DNA of 64,000 bases from a virus, in the IMG/VR virus record IMGVR_UViG_3300009609_000001, positions 36,268 through 100,267 of that record; one strand, given 5' to 3'. The position numbers were made by a program, and so were the translations under genes. The notes under the pieces are model-generated. The model saw only the letters and a program-made list of their open reading frames with translations. It did no database searches and had not been told where the DNA came from. Positions 6,464-52,025 of the stretch are shown one piece after another (positions within the stretch are counted from its first letter, which is position 1; every line of letters begins with the position of its first letter).

Positions 6464-6969
6464 TAGTTGCCTCTTACGGAGTTAAGCAATTGCACCCAGG
6501 CATGGACTTCTCCCCACGAAATGGCGCCTTGCTCCCTGTGCCTCAATTTGTTGATCGTGTTCAAGTCGAATAGCTCGCGATCTTCGATGAACTTTATTGC
6601 ACACTGCACCACGGCTGGCAGCCAAGACAGAATAGAGTCGTGGCACTGCCGACACGTCACCAGAAAGTTTTCCTTACAGCACCACTCGCTAGACTTTGAC
6701 CTCCTCGCAATCTCGTGAATGTCGAGAGTCCGTTTCTCGCGGCAGACGTGGCAGCGGTCGAAAGCCGCTCCCCACTCCGCGCGTTCCCTGAGCGCATCGG
6801 CGCTGGGATATGTCGGGCGGCGGCGGACAAGGGCACTTCGTTTCATGTCTTCCAGCACTCGCCGAACTGTTGCGACCACAGCCGGCGGGTTTCCAGGGCG
6901 GAGGATGAGGGGTACTTTTTCAAAAGATGTTCTTTCGCTTCTCGCGGCCCTTTGCGCAAATCTCGACAT
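6463..6969 (-). CDS. HNH-fold nuclease-like protein
   Basis: CHVC...DIHEI...ENFLVTCRQCH. Confidence 0.6.
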   Translation of the reverse strand: MSRFAQRAARSERTSFEKVPLILRPGNPPAVVATVRRVLEDMKRSALVRRRPTYPSADALRERAEWGAAFDRCHVCREKRTLDIHEIARRSKSSEWCCKENFLVTCRQCHDSILSWLPAVVQCAIKFIEDRELFDLNTINKLRHREQGAISWGEVHAWVQLLNSVRGN

Positions 6970-9160: not shown

Positions 9161-10140
9161 GTCTTTACCCCCGCGACCTGATCGGCCTTGTACTTGGGCA
9201 GGTAGCCGAGTTCGCTACAGTACGCGCAGGCATCGCCCTTGCTGTTGACCCCATCCTCGCAAGCCGGACAGAGAACCGAACGCGCCGAACGAAGGGTTGC
9301 GCAGCCGGCCTTGACCGATGCCAGCGATGAACCAATCCGGCCGTCCGCGCTGGTCCAGTGCGTATGGGGTACGTTGTCCTCAAAGAACTTCGTCAGAGAC
9401 CGGCAGAACGACTCGATCAGCTTGTTGTCGGCCTCCATCTTCGAGACCGTGGAAGGCTCATCCTCCGGTTCGTTTTCTTCGTCCAGGTCCGCTTTGGCGA
9501 TGGATTCCTTAATGGCCTTGCCGACGCTCTTAGCGGCTCCGCTTGTGATTTTTTTTGCGGCGGCCTTTCGTTTCTTTGCCGGGAGACTGGCGAGGGCTGC
9601 TAGGTCTTTAGCTGTCGCCTTCACTTCTCCAGACAAAACCGCGATCTTGATTTCCTCGCCGGCTGCTTCAGCGGCGGCGTCAACTGCTTTCGCGAACGCT
9701 GTATTGTTGTGAACTGTCCTTTCCGAAATACCCTCTTTTTCCGCGATTTTTGCGGCAGTCGAGCATTCTGCAACGGTTGCAGAATGCTTCCCGCCGATTG
9801 GCTTTTTCGGTGCTTCGCGGTACTTCTTCCCAATCAAGTAACGCCGCTGCTCCTCCGTTACATTCCGCTTGCTCAATTGATGGTCGATGATCCAATTGTG
9901 AGCGGACTGCCGATCCTCAAATGTTATCTTCACAGGCGCGGGCATTTTCAATTCTGGATGCCGCGCCTTGATGGCATAGCGACGATGCCCGTCCAGAAGC
10001 GTGTTGTGGTGATTGGCCCAAACAACGAGCGGTTCAAAGATTGCGCCGTCGGAGAGAATCTGCGATTCAAGCTCGCCAGAATCTTCGTTTGGTACGGATG
10101 GAATGAGGGCCGAGAATTCCGGGTCTATCTTGATCTTCAT
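9157..10140 (-). CDS. ParB-like N-terminal domain protein with HTH and C-terminal Zn finger
   Basis: IDPEFSALIP...LLDGHRRY; IAEKEGISERTV; CPAC...CAYC. Confidence 0.8.
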   Translation of the reverse strand: MKIKIDPEFSALIPSVPNEDSGELESQILSDGAIFEPLVVWANHHNTLLDGHRRYAIKARHPELKMPAPVKITFEDRQSAHNWIIDHQLSKRNVTEEQRRYLIGKKYREAPKKPIGGKHSATVAECSTAAKIAEKEGISERTVHNNTAFAKAVDAAAEAAGEEIKIAVLSGEVKATAKDLAALASLPAKKRKAAAKKITSGAAKSVGKAIKESIAKADLDEENEPEDEPSTVSKMEADNKLIESFCRSLTKFFEDNVPHTHWTSADGRIGSSLASVKAGCATLRSARSVLCPACEDGVNSKGDACAYCSELGYLPKYKADQVAGVKT

Positions 10141-34854: not shown

Positions 34855-34989
34855 TTGACGCTCTGGCTCATTCTTGCCAAAATGCCCACAGTTGCACGCT
34901 GGGCGCGAAAACTGCGCATACAGTCTCGGCGTGCAACCACCGAGCTTTTGAGAACCCCGGTCAGCACGCTGATCGGGGTTTTCTTTTTT
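34855..34989 (+). promoter_or_regulatory. Promoter, structured leader and intrinsic terminator
   Basis: TTGACG-N17-CAAAAT; 13-bp stem 34891-34937; terminator 34950-34989. Confidence 0.7.
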
Positions 34990-38363: not shown

Positions 38364-39569
38364 ATGGCCTACAAGAAATCCAAGCCCGACCAGAATCCAG
38401 CCGCGCGCATCAGCCAGGCTGCCGCCGCCGCGCGCAAGCTCTCCGGCCAGCGTCTGGAGCAAGTGCGCAAGCGGGTTGGCAATTATCTATCGAAGGGCTT
38501 GGACCGTGAGATTGCCCAGCGTTCCGTGCATCAGGGGACCTCGGAGTTAACCGGATCGCTCCGCCAGTATGCCAAGGGGGGCAAGCTCTCTGGGTCGCTA
38601 TTGAACAAGTTCGGCCCGCTGGGAAAGGCCATCGAATTCGTCCTGGGAGGTCCGAAGCGCCCCGGGGTGACAAACCAATCCGTCCAGGATGCGATTGACC
38701 TGCTCCGCCAAGTCGCGCCTGAGACGCTGGCCCCTGAGTATCGTTTGCCGCATCCGGCGCGTGGCCCACGGCCGATACCGGTTACTCCGGTTACGCCTCC
38801 TCCGGTCCAGCCGCAGCGCACACGCTCGCCGTCCGGAGTCCCCCTGCCGGAAGCCTCGCCGCAAGAGCCAGGCGGTCCGACAATTCTCCCAAAGCAGCTT
38901 CGCCAGCCGGATGAGCCTCCTCCGAGAATCCCGCAAGCGCAGCCTGTGCCGGCCGGTCAGGAAGAAGAGTTTGTCCCCGCCTCGCAAGTCTCCGGGATCC
39001 AGATGATTCCGGTGGACAACTCCAGCAACGTCTATTCCTTCGGGTACGATCCCCAAACGAAGGTCATGCGGGTTATTTATCTCGCCGCCTCGGTGCGTGG
39101 ATCGTCAGTCAGCGGAAACGTTGGCACGGCGCAAGGCAAGAGCCGCCGCCATCGACCACGCGGCGCGCTGGGGCGGACCGTGACGCAAGATCGCCGCGGC
39201 ATGGGGCCGGCTTACGATTACTACAACGTGCCGGCCAACATCTTCGAACGCTTCCAAGGGCAGGCCAGCAAGGGCAAGGCTGTGTGGGATTTACTGCGGG
39301 TTCGCGGTACAATCGAGGGCCACAGATACGAATATTCCTTGGTGGCAGCGGGTCAATCGAATATCCTGGGAGCGCAGGGACAGGTAACAGGCTCGCTGTT
39401 GTACGTGCCTCGGCGGGCTGTGCGCGGCGGTTTTGTAGGCCGAATTGGACCTCGCGGCGTGCCGGGGAGATTGAAGAGCCTGTTGCCGACCGCGATGCGA
39501 CCGGGGATGCCTCGACCTCGGCCGCCGGGACAGCCTAACGATGGGACAAGGGGGTTGTATCGATGGTAG
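38364..39569 (+). CDS. KTSC-domain protein with Pro-rich linker
   Basis: MIPVDNSSNVYSFGYDPQTKVMRV.Y...YDYYNVP..IF..F....SKGK. Confidence 0.75.
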   Translation: MAYKKSKPDQNPAARISQAAAAARKLSGQRLEQVRKRVGNYLSKGLDREIAQRSVHQGTSELTGSLRQYAKGGKLSGSLLNKFGPLGKAIEFVLGGPKRPGVTNQSVQDAIDLLRQVAPETLAPEYRLPHPARGPRPIPVTPVTPPPVQPQRTRSPSGVPLPEASPQEPGGPTILPKQLRQPDEPPPRIPQAQPVPAGQEEEFVPASQVSGIQMIPVDNSSNVYSFGYDPQTKVMRVIYLAASVRGSSVSGNVGTAQGKSRRHRPRGALGRTVTQDRRGMGPAYDYYNVPANIFERFQGQASKGKAVWDLLRVRGTIEGHRYEYSLVAAGQSNILGAQGQVTGSLLYVPRRAVRGGFVGRIGPRGVPGRLKSLLPTAMRPGMPRPRPPGQPNDGTRGLYRW

Positions 39570-40143: not shown

Positions 40144-41898
40144 ATGATGAACGCACAACACCCCGCTGGTGAAGAAATCCAGGCAGGCGAACACGTGGGC
40201 CTCGATACCGATGGGAAGCTCAAGGAGATCGACAACTCTCGCCGGCTCAAGATTCTCCGCGCCGATCGGCAACTGTTGGTCGAGTGCTTCGCGGCGCTGC
40301 GGCAGTTCCGCTACCTGAACCTGCCCAAGATTCAATCCGTGCCGGCCGATGCCGAGGTTGTGGACATCCGCGAAGATTGGGATTCTCGCTCCCTGAGCAT
40401 CCTGCTGCGACACCCGTCGTTTGAACGCGTGCCAGACGGGGCGTGCATTCCGTACATCGAGAATGAGTACGTGACCGCCTTCGAGAACATCCCGCTGGAA
40501 AAGTCGCTGCTGGTCGTTCGGCACGCTCCCGGCGCTCCGGATTCATTTCGCGAGTCCGTGGCAGAGATTTCAAAAACCGTTGGTCAGCACATCGTTTTGA
40601 TGCCGCACGGGTATGAGATTGAATCTCTGGACGACGAAAAGCTGGCAGAGATTGGCTTGCAGCGCGTAGATCAGCCCAGCGGTGCAACCTACGGCAAGTC
40701 GCCAGTTACCCTATTCGCGGAGTTGCGGGCCGAAAACGAATCCTTGCGGAAAGAGTTCCGGCTGTTCGCGCTGGCCGTGTGCGAAATGCACGGTGGATTG
40801 GTCGCCATTGACGATCGCACGATGCACGCGATTAGTCCAACCGATACGCTGATGGTCCACGCAGACGAAGCGAACCGGCGGGTTGTGTACAGTCGGAGCG
40901 AGCAAACGACCAGGGGCTTTCCGCCCACGTCTCCAGAGCTGCGCCGGATGCAAGTCGATCAGGCGCGGGAAAGCGTCGGATTGCCGCCGATCGAATGGCC
41001 AGATGCACCGTTGCCCTACGATGCCGCGCAATTCGAGCGCGACTACGCCACGGCTTCCGGGCTGACCATTGAACAGAATCGAGAGCTGGGCCTGCGCGTC
41101 GAGCCGTGCGACTGCGGAGAGGGCGGGTGCAAGGGCTTCAAGATGGCGCATTCTCCGCCCGACGCCGGGATTGCTCTGGTCAACGCCATGAGCCACGCCA
41201 CGCGGCGGATTGCCCGGCGGCTCGTGGCGGAGCGCGAGCAGGCGGCGCAAGAGGCGATTCTGAAATCCGACGGCGGCACAACGGCCGTTCCGCCGATCGA
41301 CTCGCCGTGGGACACCTCGCGCAACATCCGTTCCGCCGTGGAACGTGCCGAGGCACGGCTCGTGAGGCAGCAAGTCAGCCTCACTGCGGAGCAAGCGGCT
41401 GCGGCGTACAAAGGCGATACGCGGCCAATTCCCGGTCGAATTGGCACACTGGGCATCATCAAGACCGATACGCCAGGCGAGCCGGTCGTGACGCGCCCCT
41501 TTAATGATCGTAGTATCCCGGATCCTGGCATTGTCCCGTGGGCAGAACAGCCGATGTTGAAGGCCGCGCCGTGGGCCGAAGAAATGTTGGCGGATGCGTT
41601 CAAGTCTGGGGAAGCGAGCCCTGCGTCACCATGCGAACCGCTGGCCGCTCGCTCAACGGAACATTCAATAGAAACCAGCGTAGGCGCAGCAGGTGAAGTT
41701 CGGTTGCCCTGTCCTAGTCGCGCAGGTCTCCTGGGGTCTGAGCGCGCGACATCAGCGAATCCCCGCGGGATGCGGTTCGAATCCGCCGATACGCTGGCTG
41801 ATAATCCCTGCCCCGAGTGCAAAGGCAGCGGAATCTATCAAGGGTTTAGCGTAGAAGAAAAGTGCAAAAACTGCGGAGGAACAGGAGCAGTATGTTAG
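40144..41898 (+). CDS. Large mosaic hypothetical protein with C-terminal CxxCxGxG Zn finger
   Basis: CPECKGSG...CKNCGGTG. Confidence 0.7.
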   Translation: MMNAQHPAGEEIQAGEHVGLDTDGKLKEIDNSRRLKILRADRQLLVECFAALRQFRYLNLPKIQSVPADAEVVDIREDWDSRSLSILLRHPSFERVPDGACIPYIENEYVTAFENIPLEKSLLVVRHAPGAPDSFRESVAEISKTVGQHIVLMPHGYEIESLDDEKLAEIGLQRVDQPSGATYGKSPVTLFAELRAENESLRKEFRLFALAVCEMHGGLVAIDDRTMHAISPTDTLMVHADEANRRVVYSRSEQTTRGFPPTSPELRRMQVDQARESVGLPPIEWPDAPLPYDAAQFERDYATASGLTIEQNRELGLRVEPCDCGEGGCKGFKMAHSPPDAGIALVNAMSHATRRIARRLVAEREQAAQEAILKSDGGTTAVPPIDSPWDTSRNIRSAVERAEARLVRQQVSLTAEQAAAAYKGDTRPIPGRIGTLGIIKTDTPGEPVVTRPFNDRSIPDPGIVPWAEQPMLKAAPWAEEMLADAFKSGEASPASPCEPLAARSTEHSIETSVGAAGEVRLPCPSRAGLLGSERATSANPRGMRFESADTLADNPCPECKGSGIYQGFSVEEKCKNCGGTGAVC

Positions 41899-41972: not shown

Positions 41973-42695
41973 ATGCCTGAAAAGCATTCTACAGCGACAC
42001 GCCAAAGGCCACAGCGCGGAGATTTGACCGGGAGAAAGTTCCGGCTCTTGATGGTTATCAAGTATGTCGGCAGGGACAAAAACAGGAACAGCCTTTGGCT
42101 GTGCCATTGTGAATGCGGCAAAGAAACGATCACATGCTCGGCCTATTTGAAAAACGGCGACACTAAATCTTGCGGGTGCCTAAATTCCAAGACGACGGTA
42201 GCTAGGAACACCACGCATAATTTGTACGGCACTCCAGAGCACAGAAACTGGACGGCAATGATCGCAAGGTGCGAAAACCCAAACGTCAAGGTGTTCCACA
42301 ACTACGGTGGGCGAGGCATCCGCGTGTGTGAGCGATGGAGAACATCGTTCGCAGCGTTCTATCAAGACATGGGTCTAAGACCAACGGCTCAGCACACAGT
42401 GGATAGGTTCCCTGATCCAGACGGCAACTACGAACCGGACAACTGCCGATGGGCAACAAGGGCGGAACAAAGTCGCAATCAGAAAAGGAATCGCTTGCTC
42501 ACGTTTAATGGGAAGGTGCGATGCCTTCAGGATTGGGCCACCTTGAGCGGAATTAGTGCAGCGTCGATTTCCAAGCGACTCAAGAAAGGCTGGACAGTCG
42601 AGCAGGCACTATCGACTCCGACCAGAGGAAAGCCCGGATCGGGCCTGAACCAGACCGAAGATTGCCGCGCGTGCGGCGGGAGCGGCGTGAAGTGA
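41973..42695 (+). CDS. HNH homing endonuclease
   Basis: WLCHCECG, SCGC, YGGRGIRVCERW, VDR..GNYEPDNCRWAT; AGGAGG RBS. Confidence 0.9.
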   Translation: MPEKHSTATRQRPQRGDLTGRKFRLLMVIKYVGRDKNRNSLWLCHCECGKETITCSAYLKNGDTKSCGCLNSKTTVARNTTHNLYGTPEHRNWTAMIARCENPNVKVFHNYGGRGIRVCERWRTSFAAFYQDMGLRPTAQHTVDRFPDPDGNYEPDNCRWATRAEQSRNQKRNRLLTFNGKVRCLQDWATLSGISAASISKRLKKGWTVEQALSTPTRGKPGSGLNQTEDCRACGGSGVK

Positions 42696-42964
42696 CTGGC
42701 CAGTGCATCTCCTGCCGACTCGAACTTGCCGCCGGCATCTCGCTGGGCGGCGACCTGCTGCACTTCTGCGCCGTCTGCTGGAAGGAAATGACACCCGCCG
42801 AACGCTCCGCAGCGCAGGCCGCCTACTGGCAGTACGTGGCATCCTGCCGGCAAGCGTACCATCAGGAACAAATCGCCGCCGCCACGTCGGCGCTATACGA
42901 CTTGGTACGGGAATGCGTCCAGCAAGCCCGCGCGGAAAACGGCTTTCCGTGGGAGAGGAACTAA
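42692..42964 (+). CDS. Small Zn-finger protein
   Basis: GTG overlapping upstream stop; CISC...CAVC. Confidence 0.6.
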   Translation: MTGQCISCRLELAAGISLGGDLLHFCAVCWKEMTPAERSAAQAAYWQYVASCRQAYHQEQIAAATSALYDLVRECVQQARAENGFPWERN

Positions 42965-42984
42965 ATCGGTAGGAACCCCTGAAA

Positions 42985-43173
42985 ATGTCGATCGGTTTAC
43001 AAGAACAGAAGATCCGCAACAAGTCGCTCACGGACGAGGCCATCAAGTTTCTCTCCGACGAGTTGGGCAGAATCCTGGTGCCGGGCTATCATGGTTCGGT
43101 CGAGGTCTGCGTATGTGTCCAGGACGGAATAGCGCAGGTCGTGAAGAAACGGATCGAGAAGCTCAAGAAGTAA
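42985..43173 (+). CDS. Small DUF2292/YezD-like protein, candidate RNA-binding late activator
   Basis: Helix then GYHGSVEV...QDG...V..RIEK; the hairpin motif starts 11 nt after its stop. Confidence 0.55.
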   Translation: MSIGLQEQKIRNKSLTDEAIKFLSDELGRILVPGYHGSVEVCVCVQDGIAQVVKKRIEKLKK

Positions 43174-43183
43174 ACTCCCTCGC

Positions 43184-43239
43184 GGTATCAGATTCCCTGA
43201 GCCACGCAAAGCCATTCACCCTGGCCGCGTGTGCTCATG
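43184..43239 (+). promoter_or_regulatory. Bulged-A hairpin copy 1 plus start-codon-sequestering stem (portal)
   Basis: GGTA TCAG ATTCC CTGA GCC; rival stem TGAGC-CACGC...GCGTG-T-GCTCA(TG). Confidence 0.85.
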
Positions 43240-44892
43240 CCATCCATCAACGGCAGTAAATCCCGCCGAGACGATCCCGCCGGCAAGCATCGCGGCATCC
43301 CGCCAAACTTCGGCCGCGGCGTCGTTCCCCACGTTGCTACGTTCGTCGGCTTCATCTCCAGTTTCTCCAAGAGCTACCGGCCCAGCGACGAGGCCCTGCG
43401 GCATTCCATCGAGCAAGCCCGCTACATGCGGAACGACACCTCGATTATGGAATGCCTGGAGGCCCGCCAACGCGCTACGGCGCTGCTGAATTGGCACATC
43501 GAGCCGGAAGACGAGAAAGACCCGGAGCAAGTCGAGCTGGTCGAGAACCTGACGCGGATCGTGGAATTGACGCCGCGCTTCACGGAGTATCGACGCTGGC
43601 TCCTGGAAGCCATTTGGTTCGGCCGAGTGGCCAGCCAGAACATCTACGGCTGGGACATCCGACCCAGGCAGAAGAAACGCCTGTACGTCCGCCGCTGGAT
43701 GCCGATTCACGGCGACAAGCTGGTATTTCGCTTCGACGACGGGACCGGGAAGTACAGCGACGATCAAATCGGCATCAAGTACACGCAATTCGTCGATGCC
43801 GAGGATTTCAGCGGGCGATTCGAACTGGAGCCGACCGACTACGGCATGGCCTACTTCCTAAAGCCCTGGGAGCGGTCGCTGCTCACGGTCCATCGGCACA
43901 TGATCGAGGATGGGGCTTACGAGGATCCCCAGAGCGCCGGCAGAATCCACGGCGTCGGAATTCGGGACAGAATCTACTGGACGTGGTATCAAAAGCAAGA
44001 AGTGCTGGGGATGCTGATAGAACTGATCGAGCGAACCGGCATGGGGTTCAACATCTGGTATTACCCGGCCGGGAATGATCAGGCTTATCAGGACACCGTA
44101 GAAGCCGCCAAGAATCAAAGCGGCCAGAATGCCGTGCTGATTCCCCGCACTCCAGGTGACCCGGCGCTAGACGGCTACGGATATGACCGCATCGAGCCGT
44201 CGGGAAGTGGAATCCAGAACCTCAAGGATGTGATTCACGAGTTCTTTGGCCACCAGATCAAGCGCTACATCCTGGGGCAAACGCTGTCGAGCGAAGCGGA
44301 CGCCACGGGGCTGGGGAGCGGCGTCGCTGATTTGCACTTGGAATCCTTTCTGCAAATCGTCAAATACGACGCCACGAACTTGGAAGAGTCGATCACCACG
44401 GACCTGATCGAGCATCTCAAGCGGTTCAACTTCCCGGGGTCAAGTCATTTCCGGGTGAAGTTCAAGATCGACACGGAAGCCGCCGACGTGCAAGCCAAGC
44501 TGCAAGCCGTGTTCACCGCCTGGCAGATGGGCGCCGCTGTCCGCACGGCCGACGTGTTCGACATGATTGGCTTGTCGGTCCCTGGCCCGGATGATCAGGT
44601 ATTGGCCAATCCGCAGTTGCAACAGCAGCCGGCGCAGGAAGGGCAAGAGCCGCCGAAGTCTCCGCATCAAGCCGTCCTGGAAGCCCATTTGAACGAAGAG
44701 CCGAACGCGCACGGGGAATCTCCGCAGCAGGCGTTGCTTGAGGTCCTGACGCCCAGCAACAGCCCGGCGTCGGACGTGGCAGGCAAGGTGGTTCCACGGG
44801 GAGTAACGCGGCGGAGCGGGAATTGGAATATTACCCAGTACAATCGCAGCGGCTGGTCACGGGCGCTGAAGTTGTGGGGCGTGAGCATCTAA
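43237..44892 (+). CDS. Portal protein (Mu gp29/DUF935-like)
   Basis: LLEAIWFG, ERTG, IKRYILGQTLSSE...GLGSGVADLH. Confidence 0.85.
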   Translation: MPSINGSKSRRDDPAGKHRGIPPNFGRGVVPHVATFVGFISSFSKSYRPSDEALRHSIEQARYMRNDTSIMECLEARQRATALLNWHIEPEDEKDPEQVELVENLTRIVELTPRFTEYRRWLLEAIWFGRVASQNIYGWDIRPRQKKRLYVRRWMPIHGDKLVFRFDDGTGKYSDDQIGIKYTQFVDAEDFSGRFELEPTDYGMAYFLKPWERSLLTVHRHMIEDGAYEDPQSAGRIHGVGIRDRIYWTWYQKQEVLGMLIELIERTGMGFNIWYYPAGNDQAYQDTVEAAKNQSGQNAVLIPRTPGDPALDGYGYDRIEPSGSGIQNLKDVIHEFFGHQIKRYILGQTLSSEADATGLGSGVADLHLESFLQIVKYDATNLEESITTDLIEHLKRFNFPGSSHFRVKFKIDTEAADVQAKLQAVFTAWQMGAAVRTADVFDMIGLSVPGPDDQVLANPQLQQQPAQEGQEPPKSPHQAVLEAHLNEEPNAHGESPQQALLEVLTPSNSPASDVAGKVVPRGVTRRSGNWNITQYNRSGWSRALKLWGVSI

Positions 44893-45290: not shown

Positions 45291-45349
45291 GCCGCACCCA
45301 TAACCTTATATGTTGTGCAAGTTTTTGACCCACAAGGGGGGTATTGGCG

Positions 45350-48300
45350 ATGGGAGTGCTGACCGTCTCCGAAGCAATCCGCGTGCTCTACAAGCGGATC
45401 ACTCCCGCCGTTGGCCAGAAGGAGTTCTGGTCCAATGAACCGCGCGATGCCGGTGGAAAGTGGACGACTCCGGCACATGAGGCTGTGGCACGACCAAAGG
45501 ACGACGACGAGCATTTTAAGTTGAGCGATCGCCCGTCGCCAAAGTTCGAGCCGCTTGTCGAGGATCCTCCTCGGGACGAGAAACAGCCGCCACCACAACA
45601 CGAACCACTCCCGGGTCAGAAGGAGATGTTCGGCGCGACGGTGTCTGCAAAGACCAAGCCGGCCACCAACGAAGCCCTCTGCGCCCGCATCAAGTCCGGC
45701 GACAGCGGGGCCGAGGATGCCCTGCTGAAACAGAATCAGGGTCTGGTCTACAGCATTGCCCGGCGATACACGCGCACCCCCGGCGATCTTGAGGACTTGG
45801 CCCAGGAAGGAAATATCGGCCTTCTGGAAGCCGCCCGGCGCTTCGACCCTGAGAAGGCCAAGCATTTTTCGACCTATGCCAACCTCTGGGTGCTGGCCAA
45901 GGTGGGAAACTACGCCAAGAAATCCTGGAAGCAGTCCACCACGCAAGTAGGTGGCGACGACGACGAAAGTTCTATCGACGATCTAGCCGTGGACACCGGG
46001 GACACCTCGCCTGGATCTGGACTGGAAACATCGGAGTCACAAGACAAGCTGCGCGCCGCGGTGGCAACGCTTCCTGAGCGAGAAGCCCTGGCGGTCCGAC
46101 TGCGGTTTGGTCTTGAAGGTAACGAACCGCACGAGTTCGAAGAGATCGGAGACAAGTTGGGCATCTCTCGGCAACGGGCGCACCAGATCACCGAGAAGGC
46201 GATGGAGAAGCTTCGCCGCACGATGAAATACCGGCGCGTGGCGGACGTGCTCAAGGCGCTATATGCGAAGAAGCACAAGCCCGCAGCCAATCAGGCGTCG
46301 ATGTGGGGAGAAGAACAAGAGAAGCTCCATCCCCGCGATGAGGGCGGGAAGTGGACGCACGCGCAAATGAGCGTCGCCAAGAAAGCCGTCGAGCACATGA
46401 AGGGCAAGTTGCACGGCCCGAAGAGTAAAGAGGACCTTGTGTTTGCGGCCGGCGATCACTACTTCAACGATTCCGAGGCACGAAAGCACTTTGATTCACA
46501 CAAGCATTTTCAGGAGGGCGTGAAGGCGCATTTGGAAACGTCGGAGCAACAGGCTGCGCCAGAACAGTCGGCGGCAAAAGAGCCGCACGAAATGACGCTG
46601 GACGAGTGGGTCCAATCGATGATTGGCAAGCCATATAGAAACGGCACCACGGGAGAAAATGCGGTCTATAACGAATTGGACTTGGCCCGCCTCAATCAAC
46701 TGCACGAGAATCATGTCGCCACCGAACTGATTCACGGGGGAACGGTTCTGCCCGAAGTGCTGGCCGATTATCCCGACCTGCAGCCGAAGGCCACCGAGAA
46801 GCCTCAAAACATCACCGGTAGATACTCCCGCACCCTCTCCACCCGCGACGCCCTGCGCAAGGTCATGTACGCCTCATACCGCGGGAGCGCATTCGTCGTT
46901 CCAAAGATGGTATCCCTACAGCCGCCAAAACCTGGCGTTGGCCAAAAGCACTTCGGATTCGCAGGCGATTCGGGAGTGCATCAGCCGCCGCAGGACCCGG
47001 AGTTCGAAAAGCTCCATCCTCGTGGAAAAGGCGACAAGGGCGGCCAGTTCGCCGAGAAGCCGGAAGGCGAGAAGGCAAAGGACGATGCCGAGAAGAAAAC
47101 CGAGAAGCCGGCAGCAGAATCAGCGCCACACCCTCTGGCGGCCAAGCATGCCGAGGCCAAGAAGCACGTCACGGTCCCTGGATCAGTCACGCTGTTGAAG
47201 CACGGTTCGGAGTTTCACGCCTTCGGGGACGATGCGGCCAAGCTGGCGGAACATGGCATTGGCGACGGTCAACACGCTCACTTCGGTATGGGGGAGTTAA
47301 ATCGGCACTTGACGAATCTGACGGGCAAAGGCCAGCGTGTGGCGATCGCCGAACCTCGCGGGAAAGAGCCGGTCGCCGAACCTCCAAAGCCGCCGAAACC
47401 GGAGCCGATTCCGGCCGAGCGCCCCCCTGCGATAGCACCGCCTGCCAAAGCCGCGCCAGCTCGCCGCGTTGCACCAGCGCCGGCCGTCAAGGCACAGGCG
47501 ACAAATCCACCACAGCAGCATCCCAGCGTCCAGCAAGCTCTGCGCGACCTGGAACAAAAGCACGGACTGAGGAAGTCTCCGCCGCATCAATCGGACGTTC
47601 AACTTGCGCCGGAATCGCCATCCAAGCCGCAATCCGTCAAGGAAATCATCGCATCCGTTCACGCCAAGCATGGATTGCCACCGCGAGCGAAGCCGGCACC
47701 ATCCAAGCCGCCAACCTCAATGACCCTGGCCGACATCGCCGCATGGAACAAAGCCGGACACTTGAAGATTCCGTCAAGCGTCACGTTGGCTGGCATCCAA
47801 GAACGCATGGCCAGCCGGCAATACGAGCCCGTCACCATCGCCAAGCAGAAAGACGGCACGCTGGCGGTCATCGGCGGAGCGGAAAGCCTGCTGGCTGCGG
47901 CCAAGAATCACGAGAAGCAAGTCGCCGTACGACTTTCGGACAATGCCCACAAGCACTTCGCACAGAACTCTCCCAAACCAAAGGTAGATCCGGAGAAGAT
48001 TGCCAAGGGAGTGAGCGCCATCAAAAGCCGCCTGATGAGCATTTCTGACCATTCCCCGATTCACGAGCGGGTGCATCAATCGCTTGGAACGAAGTCCGTC
48101 CGGGAAGTCGAGCAGCGATTGGACGCCGCGGCGCAATCCGGCGACATGAGCACACTAAAGGCAGTCGAGCAAGCCATCTGGCCGGATCGATACCCGAAGT
48201 CCACAAAACAAACGCTGTCCGACCTGTTCAAGAAATCCCATCAGCCGTCGTCGGAAACTCCAACCCCAGCACCGCACGAGACCCCCTCGGCATACGAGGA

Positions 48301-50077
48301 TTGGCTGCCATCTGAATTTCACCAGAACATTGCCAGCATTTCTCAAGAGCACGGCATCGACCCGGGCGACCTGCGCGAAGCAGTGGATGACCTGCACCGG
48401 GAATCCGTTGATGGCTGGCGAGAGCGTTTGAACATGTTCAACGCCTACCAAAGCAAAGGCATGACCCCCAGCAGCCTCAATGCCTGGCAGGAGTCCGGCA
48501 AGGACTTGGAAGAGTACCCCGGCATGGATGAAGCGGTAGCCAGATTCTCCGGGACGTGGGGCGAGCACGGCGGGTATGGCGCTGGCCAATTCAACGTCGG
48601 CAAGTCCAGAACCAGCGCTGCCGTAGACAGCCCAACAGAGCAATTCGTCGCCATGATGCTGGCGGGCCGGCCGCGGAAGCCGGTCAAGGACGAGGGGATG
48701 ATTCGCACGGCCGCCGCACAAGTTAAATCAGCGCAGCAGTATCGTCCGGCTAGTGGCGAGCAAGTTCCGTTCTCGCGCGAAGGCCGGAAAGAGCGATACC
48801 TGCGGGACCTTTGTGAGCATGTGAACAAAGCGGCCGGTGACTGCCACCCAAATCCCAGCGATCCGCAACGAAAAGCCGGAAACTTTCGCAAGGGCCACGT
48901 ATGGGTGCATGGCCTGCCCATCAGCATCGAAACCGCTAAGGGATTCAAGCGCTGGCCCGGGGGACCGCCTCTGGCTGCGCACTACGGCTACATCAAGGGG
49001 ACCAGCAGCCGCGACGACCAGCAGCTTGATGTATTCGTTGGCCCCGTGCCGTCGAGCCAAATCGTATTCCTGATCGACCACCGCAGAAAGAGCGGGCGAT
49101 TCGACGAGACGAAGGTCCTCATTGGTTTTTCCAGCCGAGAGCAAGCCGTCAAGGCGTATCTCTCGTCCTATCCTCCGGGCCGCAGGGCATTCCCGTTGAC
49201 CAAAATGACGATCTGGCAATTCAAGGCCTGGCTCAAGGAGGGCGACCAGCGTACCCCGGTCGAGCGACAGGTGAGCAAGTTCGCGCGGTCGCCAGCGGAC
49301 GTGCTCAAGCAGCTTTACAAAAAGATCAAGCCAGCCACCGGGCAGATCGGACTATTCGCTCCGCATCCCGCCAAAGCCTCAGTGCAGCATACCGCCACGG
49401 TCGCGCTGCCCGAGCCCAACTTCACCGGCGTTATCAAAGACAGCCTCGGCCGCGAGCAACACTACGTTGACGGCGTGCATGTGGCCGGGCCGCAAGATGC
49501 GGAGACGCCGAAGCCGGTCAAAAAGATCGAGCCAAAGCCTCGGCAGAAGTCCATGTTCGACGATGACGTGCAATGGGTCGAGGTCAACAACACCCACGTC
49601 GCGATTGAGCCGGATGGAAAGATCGTCCACGGTCCGGAAGGCATGGAAGGCAAGCAGATCGACGAGATCGAGAAGGTGGAGGAGCCAACGGATGTTATGG
49701 CCGAATCGTCGGAAGACACCGTAACGGAACCATCGCCATCTCCCTGGAAACTCTCCCGGGGCGACTTTCACAAGCAGCAGAAGCCGGGCTACGACGTTGC
49801 CGCCACGAACCGCGAACACAGGGAATCGGTCGAGCAAGCCCTGGCAGAAGGAAAGGATGTTCCCGCTGAGGCATATCGGGATTACGCTGATTTGAAGCCA
49901 AAGGCCAAGACGGTTGAGGAGGCGATTCGGGGCGTGGTGGCTCCGAAACCGATAGCGAGCGCTGCGGAACCAAGTACAATAGGATTGGAAGGCGGTCAAG
50001 AGCGTGCGCGAGGCACTGGTGGGGATTTCCTCCGTATGACGCAAAAACCGTTGACAAGTCAGCCGCAAAAAGCCTAG
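45350..50077 (+). CDS. Large polyvalent protein (sigma-70, MutS-I-like, ParB-like and InPase-like domains)
   Basis: DLAQEGNIGLLEAARRFDP...FSTYA; EEIGDKLGISRQRAHQI; EFHAFGDDA...GQRVAIAE; AGNFRKGH...HYGYIKGT...DVFVGP...FDE.KV. Confidence 0.85.
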   Translation: MGVLTVSEAIRVLYKRITPAVGQKEFWSNEPRDAGGKWTTPAHEAVARPKDDDEHFKLSDRPSPKFEPLVEDPPRDEKQPPPQHEPLPGQKEMFGATVSAKTKPATNEALCARIKSGDSGAEDALLKQNQGLVYSIARRYTRTPGDLEDLAQEGNIGLLEAARRFDPEKAKHFSTYANLWVLAKVGNYAKKSWKQSTTQVGGDDDESSIDDLAVDTGDTSPGSGLETSESQDKLRAAVATLPEREALAVRLRFGLEGNEPHEFEEIGDKLGISRQRAHQITEKAMEKLRRTMKYRRVADVLKALYAKKHKPAANQASMWGEEQEKLHPRDEGGKWTHAQMSVAKKAVEHMKGKLHGPKSKEDLVFAAGDHYFNDSEARKHFDSHKHFQEGVKAHLETSEQQAAPEQSAAKEPHEMTLDEWVQSMIGKPYRNGTTGENAVYNELDLARLNQLHENHVATELIHGGTVLPEVLADYPDLQPKATEKPQNITGRYSRTLSTRDALRKVMYASYRGSAFVVPKMVSLQPPKPGVGQKHFGFAGDSGVHQPPQDPEFEKLHPRGKGDKGGQFAEKPEGEKAKDDAEKKTEKPAAESAPHPLAAKHAEAKKHVTVPGSVTLLKHGSEFHAFGDDAAKLAEHGIGDGQHAHFGMGELNRHLTNLTGKGQRVAIAEPRGKEPVAEPPKPPKPEPIPAERPPAIAPPAKAAPARRVAPAPAVKAQATNPPQQHPSVQQALRDLEQKHGLRKSPPHQSDVQLAPESPSKPQSVKEIIASVHAKHGLPPRAKPAPSKPPTSMTLADIAAWNKAGHLKIPSSVTLAGIQERMASRQYEPVTIAKQKDGTLAVIGGAESLLAAAKNHEKQVAVRLSDNAHKHFAQNSPKPKVDPEKIAKGVSAIKSRLMSISDHSPIHERVHQSLGTKSVREVEQRLDAAAQSGDMSTLKAVEQAIWPDRYPKSTKQTLSDLFKKSHQPSSETPTPAPHETPSAYEDWLPSEFHQNIASISQEHGIDPGDLREAVDDLHRESVDGWRERLNMFNAYQSKGMTPSSLNAWQESGKDLEEYPGMDEAVARFSGTWGEHGGYGAGQFNVGKSRTSAAVDSPTEQFVAMMLAGRPRKPVKDEGMIRTAAAQVKSAQQYRPASGEQVPFSREGRKERYLRDLCEHVNKAAGDCHPNPSDPQRKAGNFRKGHVWVHGLPISIETAKGFKRWPGGPPLAAHYGYIKGTSSRDDQQLDVFVGPVPSSQIVFLIDHRRKSGRFDETKVLIGFSSREQAVKAYLSSYPPGRRAFPLTKMTIWQFKAWLKEGDQRTPVERQVSKFARSPADVLKQLYKKIKPATGQIGLFAPHPAKASVQHTATVALPEPNFTGVIKDSLGREQHYVDGVHVAGPQDAETPKPVKKIEPKPRQKSMFDDDVQWVEVNNTHVAIEPDGKIVHGPEGMEGKQIDEIEKVEEPTDVMAESSEDTVTEPSPSPWKLSRGDFHKQQKPGYDVAATNREHRESVEQALAEGKDVPAEAYRDYADLKPKAKTVEEAIRGVVAPKPIASAAEPSTIGLEGGQERARGTGGDFLRMTQKPLTSQPQKA

Positions 50078-50100: not shown

Positions 50101-50157
50101 GGTATTGGACCAACCAAGCCCGCCGTCCCGCAAAGGGACGAGCGGGCTTTTTTATTT
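50101..50157 (+). promoter_or_regulatory. Bulged-A hairpin copy 2 overlapping an intrinsic terminator
   Basis: GGTA TTGG ACCAA CCAA GCC; AAGCCCGC...GCGGGCTT TTTTATTT. Confidence 0.9.
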
Positions 50158-50165
50158 GCCGAACG

Positions 50166-51970: not shown

Positions 51971-52025
51971 GGTACTGAATCACTCAGGCCCGTGAAAGCC
52001 CCTAACAAGGAGTTGACACGTGGCT
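51971..52025 (+). promoter_or_regulatory. Bulged-A hairpin copy 4 plus RBS/start-sequestering stem (capsid)
   Basis: GGTA CTGA ATCAC TCAG GCC; GGCC-CGTG...CCT-aaca-AGG...CACG-t-GGCT. Confidence 0.85.

Follow-up and report, generated by a model that had tools for sequence, protein, structure and literature searches.

A repeated bulged-adenine hairpin with the anatomy of an RNA switch, and a rare portal-adjacent small protein as one candidate for its reader, in a phage probably infecting planctomycetes

The window analyzed here is a stretch of 64,000 nt comprising bases 36268–100267 of a complete IMG/VR virus record of 100,267 bp with terminal repeats of 123 bp. Relatives of its portal protein with 43–56% identity were found on IMG/VR contigs and in MAGs, the latter mostly from Planctomycetota (Pirellulales, Thermogutta, Fuerstiella); single contigs with portal relatives were binned as Chloroflexota and Gemmatimonadota. 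The host of the phage is probably a planctomycete.

A small open reading frame, referred to here as ORF62, occupies positions 42985–43173 of the plus strand, from an ATG at 42985 to a TAA at 43171–43173, and encodes a basic protein of 62 amino acids with a pI of 9.1. A weak Shine-Dalgarno-like AGGAA, read from the sequence, is located on the same strand at 42971–42975, 9 nt before the ATG, and other genes of the cluster show GGAG or AGGAG 6–9 nt upstream of their starts. The codon-usage log-odds of ORF62 amount to 0.505 per codon, compared with a mean of 0.381 (sd 0.173) for in-frame 62-codon segments of 11 long phage genes and a mean of -0.474 for out-of-frame ones. This score is higher than that of 80% of the in-frame segments and is reached by none of the out-of-frame segments; in addition, the GC content by codon position (0.55/0.29/0.77) is as in the portal gene. 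The coding score excludes ORF62 as a non-coding artefact, and the frame is very likely translated. The gene described by the sequence-only reading of this DNA is thus a real one: the motifs GYHGSVEV and VQDG and the basic tail, KKRIEKLKK, are all present, and the coding signal is that of the long phage genes.

ORF62 is the last gene of a plus-strand, terminase-carrying unit that starts near 34855–34983, where a promoter-like site (34855–34883) and a leader terminator (34950–34983), both on the plus strand, are found 5' of the terminase-side genes. Between 34983 and 43184 there is no plus-strand terminator-like site with more than five stem pairs, which is why ORF62 can be said to close this unit. 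The gene that follows is a Mu-type portal gene (43231–44892, plus strand; PF06074, E = 1.3e-40 by hmmscan against Pfam), the first gene under the hairpin described below, so that the earlier placement of ORF62 at the head of the morphogenesis cluster was correct.

Directly 5' of ORF62, a plus-strand ORF of 100 codons (42662–42964) overlaps the 3' end of an HNH gene by 34 nt. Its product combines a basic N-terminus with a CxxC-x17-CxxC zinc ribbon, is without a match in Pfam, in NCBIfam or to PF10122, and is chemically closer to Mu Com than ORF62 is. Further downstream, between the portal and the protease genes, a protein of 1577 amino acids (45344–50077, plus strand) contains a sigma-70 region 2-like sequence, as read from its translation, and over residues 1148–1405 it shares homology with the C-terminal end of the portal-MuF fusion found in one of the relatives, L140.

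Between ORF62 and the portal gene lies the first copy of a hairpin that we call P1, GGTATCAGATTCCCTGAGCC (43184–43203, plus strand), which consists of the pairs G-C, G-C and U-G, a bulged A, an upper stem of 4 bp and a 5-nt loop starting with A. The gap from the stop codon of ORF62, which ends at 43173, to the start of the hairpin at 43184 is 10 nt, where 11 nt had been counted before. Seven copies of P1 exist in the window, beginning at 43184, 50101, 51485, 51971, 58876, 61432 and 63491, all of them intergenic and on the plus strand, and no further copies are found elsewhere in the 100-kb genome. Their common pattern is GGTA, a 4-bp stem, a loop of 5–6 nt starting with A, the complementary stem and GCC. 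The six copies identified from sequence alone form all seven pairs without exception, and two of these pairs show double compensatory changes; when the partner is slid by one column as a control, pairing is about 50–55%. The covariance-model scores are 26–32 bits, with all seven copies included in the model. Since GGUA, the loop A and GCC stay constant through the compensatory changes of the stem, this conservation argues for a specific reader.

A larger stem downstream re-uses the 3' arm of each P1 (GAGCC or GGCC) as the beginning of its own 5' arm. This stem precedes a U-tract at four sites (50101, 58876, 61432 and 63491), and at 43184 and 51485 it lies over the start codon or the Shine-Dalgarno sequence. 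It is thermodynamically favoured over P1 by 3.4–14.5 kcal/mol, and forcing P1 to form removes 4–6 of the basal pairs that adjoin the U-tract. At the first copy, the second stem (43198–43237, plus strand) re-uses the GAGCC of P1 in its 5' arm, with the candidate portal starts GTG 43231 and ATG 43237 lying under its 3' arm. The free MFE of this site is -23.0 kcal/mol; enforcing P1 comes at a cost of +6.3 kcal/mol, and the 5 bp at the base of the stem come apart. Having no U-tract, this stem would occlude the start codon instead of terminating transcription. Because P1 shares its 3' arm with the downstream stem, a factor that stabilises P1 would be expected to lead to read-through. The P1 hairpins have the anatomy of a protein-dependent switch acting through termination or start occlusion, and as an RNA switch they are well supported; the RNA side of the model put forward from the sequence, with hairpins that share their 3' arm with a terminator or a start-occluding stem, holds.

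The most divergent copy is GGTACTGAATCACTCAGGCC (51971–51990, plus strand), in which all four upper pairs are changed compensatorily. It has no terminator after it and a T-run just 5' of it, and forcing P1 at this site strips only a few basal pairs of a stem that reaches the start codon.

Other readings of the P1 sites were considered and rejected. As a promoter for the phage sigma domain, P1 would have conserved blocks only 9–10 nt apart and a terminator directly after them. A palindromic DNA operator is disfavoured by the symmetric compensatory changes together with the single orientation of the copies, both of which favour RNA. Attenuation by ribosome masking was dismissed on the distance between the upstream stop codon and P1, which is 10–39 nt at six sites, the seventh being more than 400 nt from the nearest long ORF.

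No Rfam family was found in the window. A scan of IMG/VR with the exact P1 pattern produced no more than one match on any contig, in line with chance, and the 36 matches in 401 Planctomycetota genomes, with at most two per genome, are likewise at chance level when compared with about 22 for the reversed control. A count of 10-mers for lineage-specific motifs in the relatives was swamped by GC-rich noise.

ORF62 had been likened by eye to the DUF2292/YezD small proteins, a resemblance that is not supported by Pfam, NCBIfam, hhalign or shuffle tests with the family HMM. Neither Pfam (hmmscan, E <= 1) nor NCBIfam contains a family that matches ORF62. PF10055, whose gathering score is 22 bits, does not match ORF62, and a six-frame search of the entire 100-kb genome with this model gave no hit at E <= 10, the B. 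subtilis control being positive; none of 11 members of the small-protein family described below match it either (0/11). As a genuine DUF2292 comparison set, we used a protein from the Planctomycetota genome L169 (51.9 bits) and one relative (P0005 and P0006). Against the alignment of these two sequences, which is a thin profile, hhalign gave a probability of 0.6% for ORF62 and of 1.0% for its family, and the family HMM scored them at 0.5 and 0.8 bits, which 11–12% of their own shuffles do as well.

What ORF62 and DUF2292/YezD have in common is their size and the pattern seen by eye, namely a helix, G-[SA]-V-x-V-x-V (a G-S-V-x-V strand), a Gly turn and a second strand; the first strand of ORF62 is however longer, and the likeness is without HMM or profile-profile support. 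Weak leads in the same direction came from the ESM Atlas, in which no named cluster is closer in features than DUF2292 (0.78, 180 shared features) and in which the tool's own model of ORF62 has a TM of 0.59 to a DUF2292 cluster, both values being below the reliability marks of that tool. The same model is closer to an unnamed cluster of 67-aa Planctomycetota proteins (TM 0.75), and DUF2292-labelled chains are not among the structure matches listed for the ORF62 model. That ORF62 might be a strongly diverged DUF2292/YezD protein is highly improbable, and judged from the sequence and profile comparisons it is not a DUF2292 protein. We found nothing in the literature on the function of DUF2292, so that membership would in any case be uninformative on mechanism. 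The expectation that this locus might give a function to the uncharacterised DUF2292 family falls together with the label on which it was built.

By single-sequence search, ORF62 is an orphan. A word-index protein search returned only ORF62 itself, and an exhaustive phmmer search of 1.84 billion representatives returned three long repeat proteins (spiralin-like, TPR and ankyrin) that were judged spurious. Searching 50,697 phage records with tblastn gave nothing below E = 7, a sequence search of the PDB gave nothing significant, and metagenome scans with ORF62 as well as with the L140-type subfamily yielded no relatives. The sole PHROG match is a weak one (E = 0.026) to a function-unknown PHROG.

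Small ORFs of the same layout are nevertheless present near the portal genes of relatives. In L143 the stop of such a gene (9685–9882) is located 19 nt before the portal start. In L119 (2120–2323, with a twin in L117) and in L134 (6621–6800) the gene lies one to two genes downstream of the portal, and in L140 (3840–4052) and L122 (12675–12848) it comes directly after the portal-MuF gene. The relatives' small ORFs are mutually similar (E = 1e-7 to 3e-6 in a small database), and a profile search of 5.8 billion proteins added P0012–P0015, which carry neither a Pfam domain nor a name. The resulting family comprises basic, unannotated proteins of 60–80 amino acids, with one predicted long helix and a beta-hairpin, encoded at most two genes from Mu-type portal genes in Planctomycetota-linked phages and prophages. 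The pI of the full-length members is 8.2–11, and that of the truncated P0016 is 4.6.

In a leave-one-out test, the HMM built from 10 members found ORF62 as the top non-member among 8,848 six-frame ORFs (14.8 bits, E = 0.012; runner-up 9.4 bits), with a 50-residue alignment free of gaps and a score that was not reached by any of 5000 shuffled versions of ORF62. The E-value between ORF62 and the family improved with depth, from 4 (single-sequence tblastn) to 0.056 (five seeds) and 0.012 (10 members), but it is not fully independent because the first seeds were noticed via their weak similarity to ORF62. The location agrees as well, ORF62 lying immediately 5' of a PF06074 portal gene like the member in L143. 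Taking profile and location together, ORF62 is probably a divergent member of this rare and unnamed family of portal-adjacent small proteins, the match itself being marginal.

The family is rare, and its distribution is patchy. Most of the portal relatives with 10-kb flanks lack it (L118, L125, L130, L131, L132, L136 and L144), and among 151 sampled Planctomycetota genomes it was detected in a single one, the genome of L143. IMG/VR scans with alignments of the subfamilies returned either nothing or only three contigs that were already in the set. The family genes tend to occupy the ends of operons; in L134 the gene is followed (6801–6945) by a compound hairpin of 90 nt, with -78 kcal/mol over 145 nt, that ends in U7.

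One check suggested with the earlier model was whether homologues of ORF62 are followed by similar hairpins. Its outcome is divided: gene and hairpin occur together in the window and in L140, and not in L143, L119/L117, L134 and L122, where a relaxed pattern detected no P1-like hairpin within several hundred nt of the family gene. As the searches found neither motif nor family in further lineages, the comparison covers only about five lineages, split about two to three. In L140 the order is family gene, promoter-like TTGACA-N18-AAGAAT and GGTACTTTACGAAAAAGGCC, which lies 74 nt after the family gene and overlaps a very strong terminator. This hairpin is the top match in L140 to the model made from the seven window copies (16.9 bits, E = 0.0013 for 12.8 kb; next match 10.3 bits), a score that is also the noise ceiling over 350 kb of relatives, where a 17-bit match falls inside a portal gene. 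Its covariation exists by construction because the filter used for its discovery required pairing. L122 and L140 are 78% identical over the module, and in L122 the upper-stem pairing of the equivalent hairpin is lost. The L140 module is placed before the homologue of the 50166 gene and after the homologue of the C-terminal domain of the polyprotein, and it shares CTTTTTTATTTGCC with the copy at 50101. The L140 hairpin corresponds in position to this second copy, so that in two distinct gene orders a small gene lies shortly before a P1-type hairpin.

Some features of this region deserve mention in their own right. L140:4053–4200 and L122:12849–13010, one of them on a MAG contig and the other in a complete IMG/VR phage, form a 78%-identical unit reaching from the family gene to the protease/scaffold homologue. 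In this unit, about 50 variable nt separate a promoter-like TTGACA-N17/18-AAGAAT from a terminator of the 20-bp class; the unit may represent a leader/attenuator, or else a small RNA about 100 nt long, and it has no match in Rfam. The identical 14-mer CTTTTTTATTTGCC ends the terminator before the protease/scaffold gene in the window (50140–50160), in L140 (4180–4200) and, with one mismatch, near 13000 in L122, a conservation that is unusually strong for a terminator tail, given that the proteins of the three phages are only about 40% identical. In addition, matches to the int-alpA RNA (Rfam RF02996) are found at L140:6557–6623 (41.7 bits) and L122:15361–15426 (36.1 bits), directly 5' of the homologue of the 52020 gene, a place at which the window has the hairpin copy 51971.

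The fold of ORF62 was predicted poorly by AF2 from the single sequence (pLDDT 59.5). With the family alignment, the model (pLDDT 73) shows a predicted helix at residues 3–30 and a beta-hairpin formed by residues 37–46 and 49–59. Foldseek searches of this model against the PDB and BFVD returned nothing at E <= 0.001, the best match of a wide VIA-align search (a Mu baseplate chain, Z 5.0) is below the noise level of 7–8 of that tool, and no known RNA-binding fold was recognised in the structure searches. A complex prediction of portal residues 1–500 with ORF62 scored 0.00, which counts neither way.

How ORF62 and the hairpins may belong together can be outlined as follows. ORF62 would bind the bulged-A P1, i.e. 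GGUA, the 4-bp stem, the loop starting with A, the matching stem and GCC. Once P1 is locked in this way, the GAGCC of its 3' arm would be unable to seed the downstream stem. At 50101, 58876, 61432 and 63491 the terminator stem would consequently be pulled 4–6 bp away from its U-tract, permitting read-through, and at 43184 and 51485 the stem over the start codon or the Shine-Dalgarno sequence would be opened. Being a product of the preceding operon, ORF62 would, by its accumulation, time the switch to the portal, protease/scaffold, capsid and fibre genes. The logic would be that of HutP, LicT/SacY or Mu Com, carried out by an unrelated protein. As a mechanism, a P1-binding activator or antiterminator is the best single guess and is coherent with the RNA switch; we consider it possible but put it forward only tentatively.

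The evidence for this binder role is circumstantial, since it consists in the position beside P1 here and in L140. In its favour, ORF62 lies just 5' of the first copy, and the family gene of L140 is likewise found 5' of a similar hairpin; moreover, regulators of known type that might take the role instead were not found in the six frames of the genome, neither ANTAR (PF03861), CAT_RBD (PF03123) and Com (PF10122) at E <= 1 nor NusG. Against it, the family members in L143, L119/L117, L134 and L122 are without such a hairpin nearby. With seven hairpins in the genome, a small unknown gene 5' of one of them is also unsurprising, and this position is the sole tie of ORF62 to the RNA. It is equally conceivable, if similarly uncertain, that the family is a small head-assembly or portal accessory, that its adjacency to the hairpin marks an operon boundary only, and that P1 is read by something else. 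Indeed, all lineages in which the family was found have it in the portal region, 5' of the portal in the window and L143 and 3' of it in L119/L117/L134, L140 and L122, and homologues are present without P1. Small unnamed genes are common in phage head modules, and subunit contacts are commonly made by a module of a helix and a beta-hairpin; the highest-scoring structures, at noise level with Z 5.0 at most, are baseplate, sheath and flagellar-rod chains. A distribution as patchy as the one observed, with most portal relatives lacking the gene and a single one of the 151 genomes having it, would however be unusual for a core structural part, and there is no similarity to known head-completion or connector families.

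The remaining explanation, that ORF62 is an unrelated accessory gene and that P1 is either read by another factor or acts on RNA polymerase in cis, seems to us no less possible, though not probable in itself. The phage encodes several candidates for such a reader, among them the 100-aa CxxC-x17-CxxC protein (42662–42964), whose four-cysteine ribbon is in the spacing class of Mu Com and whose N-terminus is basic, a KTSC protein (38364–39569), a 584-aa CxxCxGxG-finger protein (40144–41898) that weakly matches a Q-like antiterminator PHROG (E = 0.006), and the sigma-bearing polyprotein (45344–50077); a host protein may also be considered. Antiterminator RNAs acting in cis exist, e.g. HK022 put. 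These candidates, however, match no known RNA-binding antiterminator family (PF10122, ANTAR, CAT_RBD, NusG), and the conservation of GGUA, loop A and GCC again speaks for a specific reader. A host factor would predict P1-like sites in the host, and in the 401 Planctomycetota genomes, which may or may not include the true host, such sites are at chance level. The three readings, in which ORF62 is an activator, a head-assembly protein or an unrelated gene, are thus equally open, each being plausible without being probable. Carrying the activator reading one step further, ORF62 and its relatives might represent a new class of sequence-specific RNA-binding proteins of about 60 amino acids, built of a helix and a beta-hairpin, which by locking a bulged-A hairpin would disable the terminators and start-occluding stems at seven dispersed sites. 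The late genes of a Planctomycetota phage would then be switched on locally, one hairpin at a time, unlike in the processive antitermination of lambda N/Q, but we regard this as rather doubtful.

If ORF62 does bind P1, it would represent a new minimal RNA-binding fold and a new way of timing the virion genes of a temperate phage, in which one small protein acts at many intergenic hairpin/terminator modules. It would also give a first handle on gene regulation in Planctomycetota phages, where almost nothing is known, and synthetic biology would gain a compact, orthogonal part in the ORF62/P1 pair. Should ORF62 not bind, the DUF2292 label should still not be propagated, a rare portal-adjacent small-protein family is still delineated, and the search for the P1 reader shifts to the other candidates.

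Among known systems, lambda gpW, a small head-completion protein whose gene is located between those of terminase and portal, resembles ORF62 in that it is a protein of about 65 amino acids, encoded immediately 5' of the portal gene, with a mixed fold of alpha and beta-hairpin elements. ORF62 differs in having no Pfam match, in a model of one helix and a long hairpin instead of helix-hairpin-helix, and in belonging to a family that is also found downstream of the portal in relatives. On the RNA side, P1 is similar in shape to the operators of the MS2 and PP7 coat proteins, in which one bulged adenine in a short stem and a conserved A in a small loop make up a classic protein-recognition hairpin. 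Those proteins, however, are RNA-phage coat proteins that repress one gene and have no relation to ORF62 in sequence or fold, whereas activation is proposed here.

With HutP, LicT/SacY/BglG (RAT) and PyrR, the P1 sites share the principle that a weak hairpin uses nucleotides of the 5' arm of a terminator, which is blocked when the protein is bound, and in the case of hutP also a regulator gene located directly 5' of a target. In contrast to the LicT/SacY type, CAT_RBD and ANTAR are absent from the phage genome and ORF62 is predicted to be a single helix with a beta-hairpin; furthermore, the targets are dispersed through the virion operon and not confined to a single leader. Mu Com is a four-cysteine zinc ribbon (PF10122), whereas ORF62 has only two cysteines (CVC) and no match to this family, the Com-like ribbon of this phage belonging to the neighbouring 100-aa ORF. 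Com also acts at one site, and here there are seven, four of which are terminators. Nevertheless, in Mu com/mom as at this locus a phage protein of about 62 amino acids is encoded just 5' of an RNA stem that hides the start of the next gene, and the logic proposed for the first copy (43184–43237), in which an activator bound next to or inside the structure would free the start codon, is that of Com.
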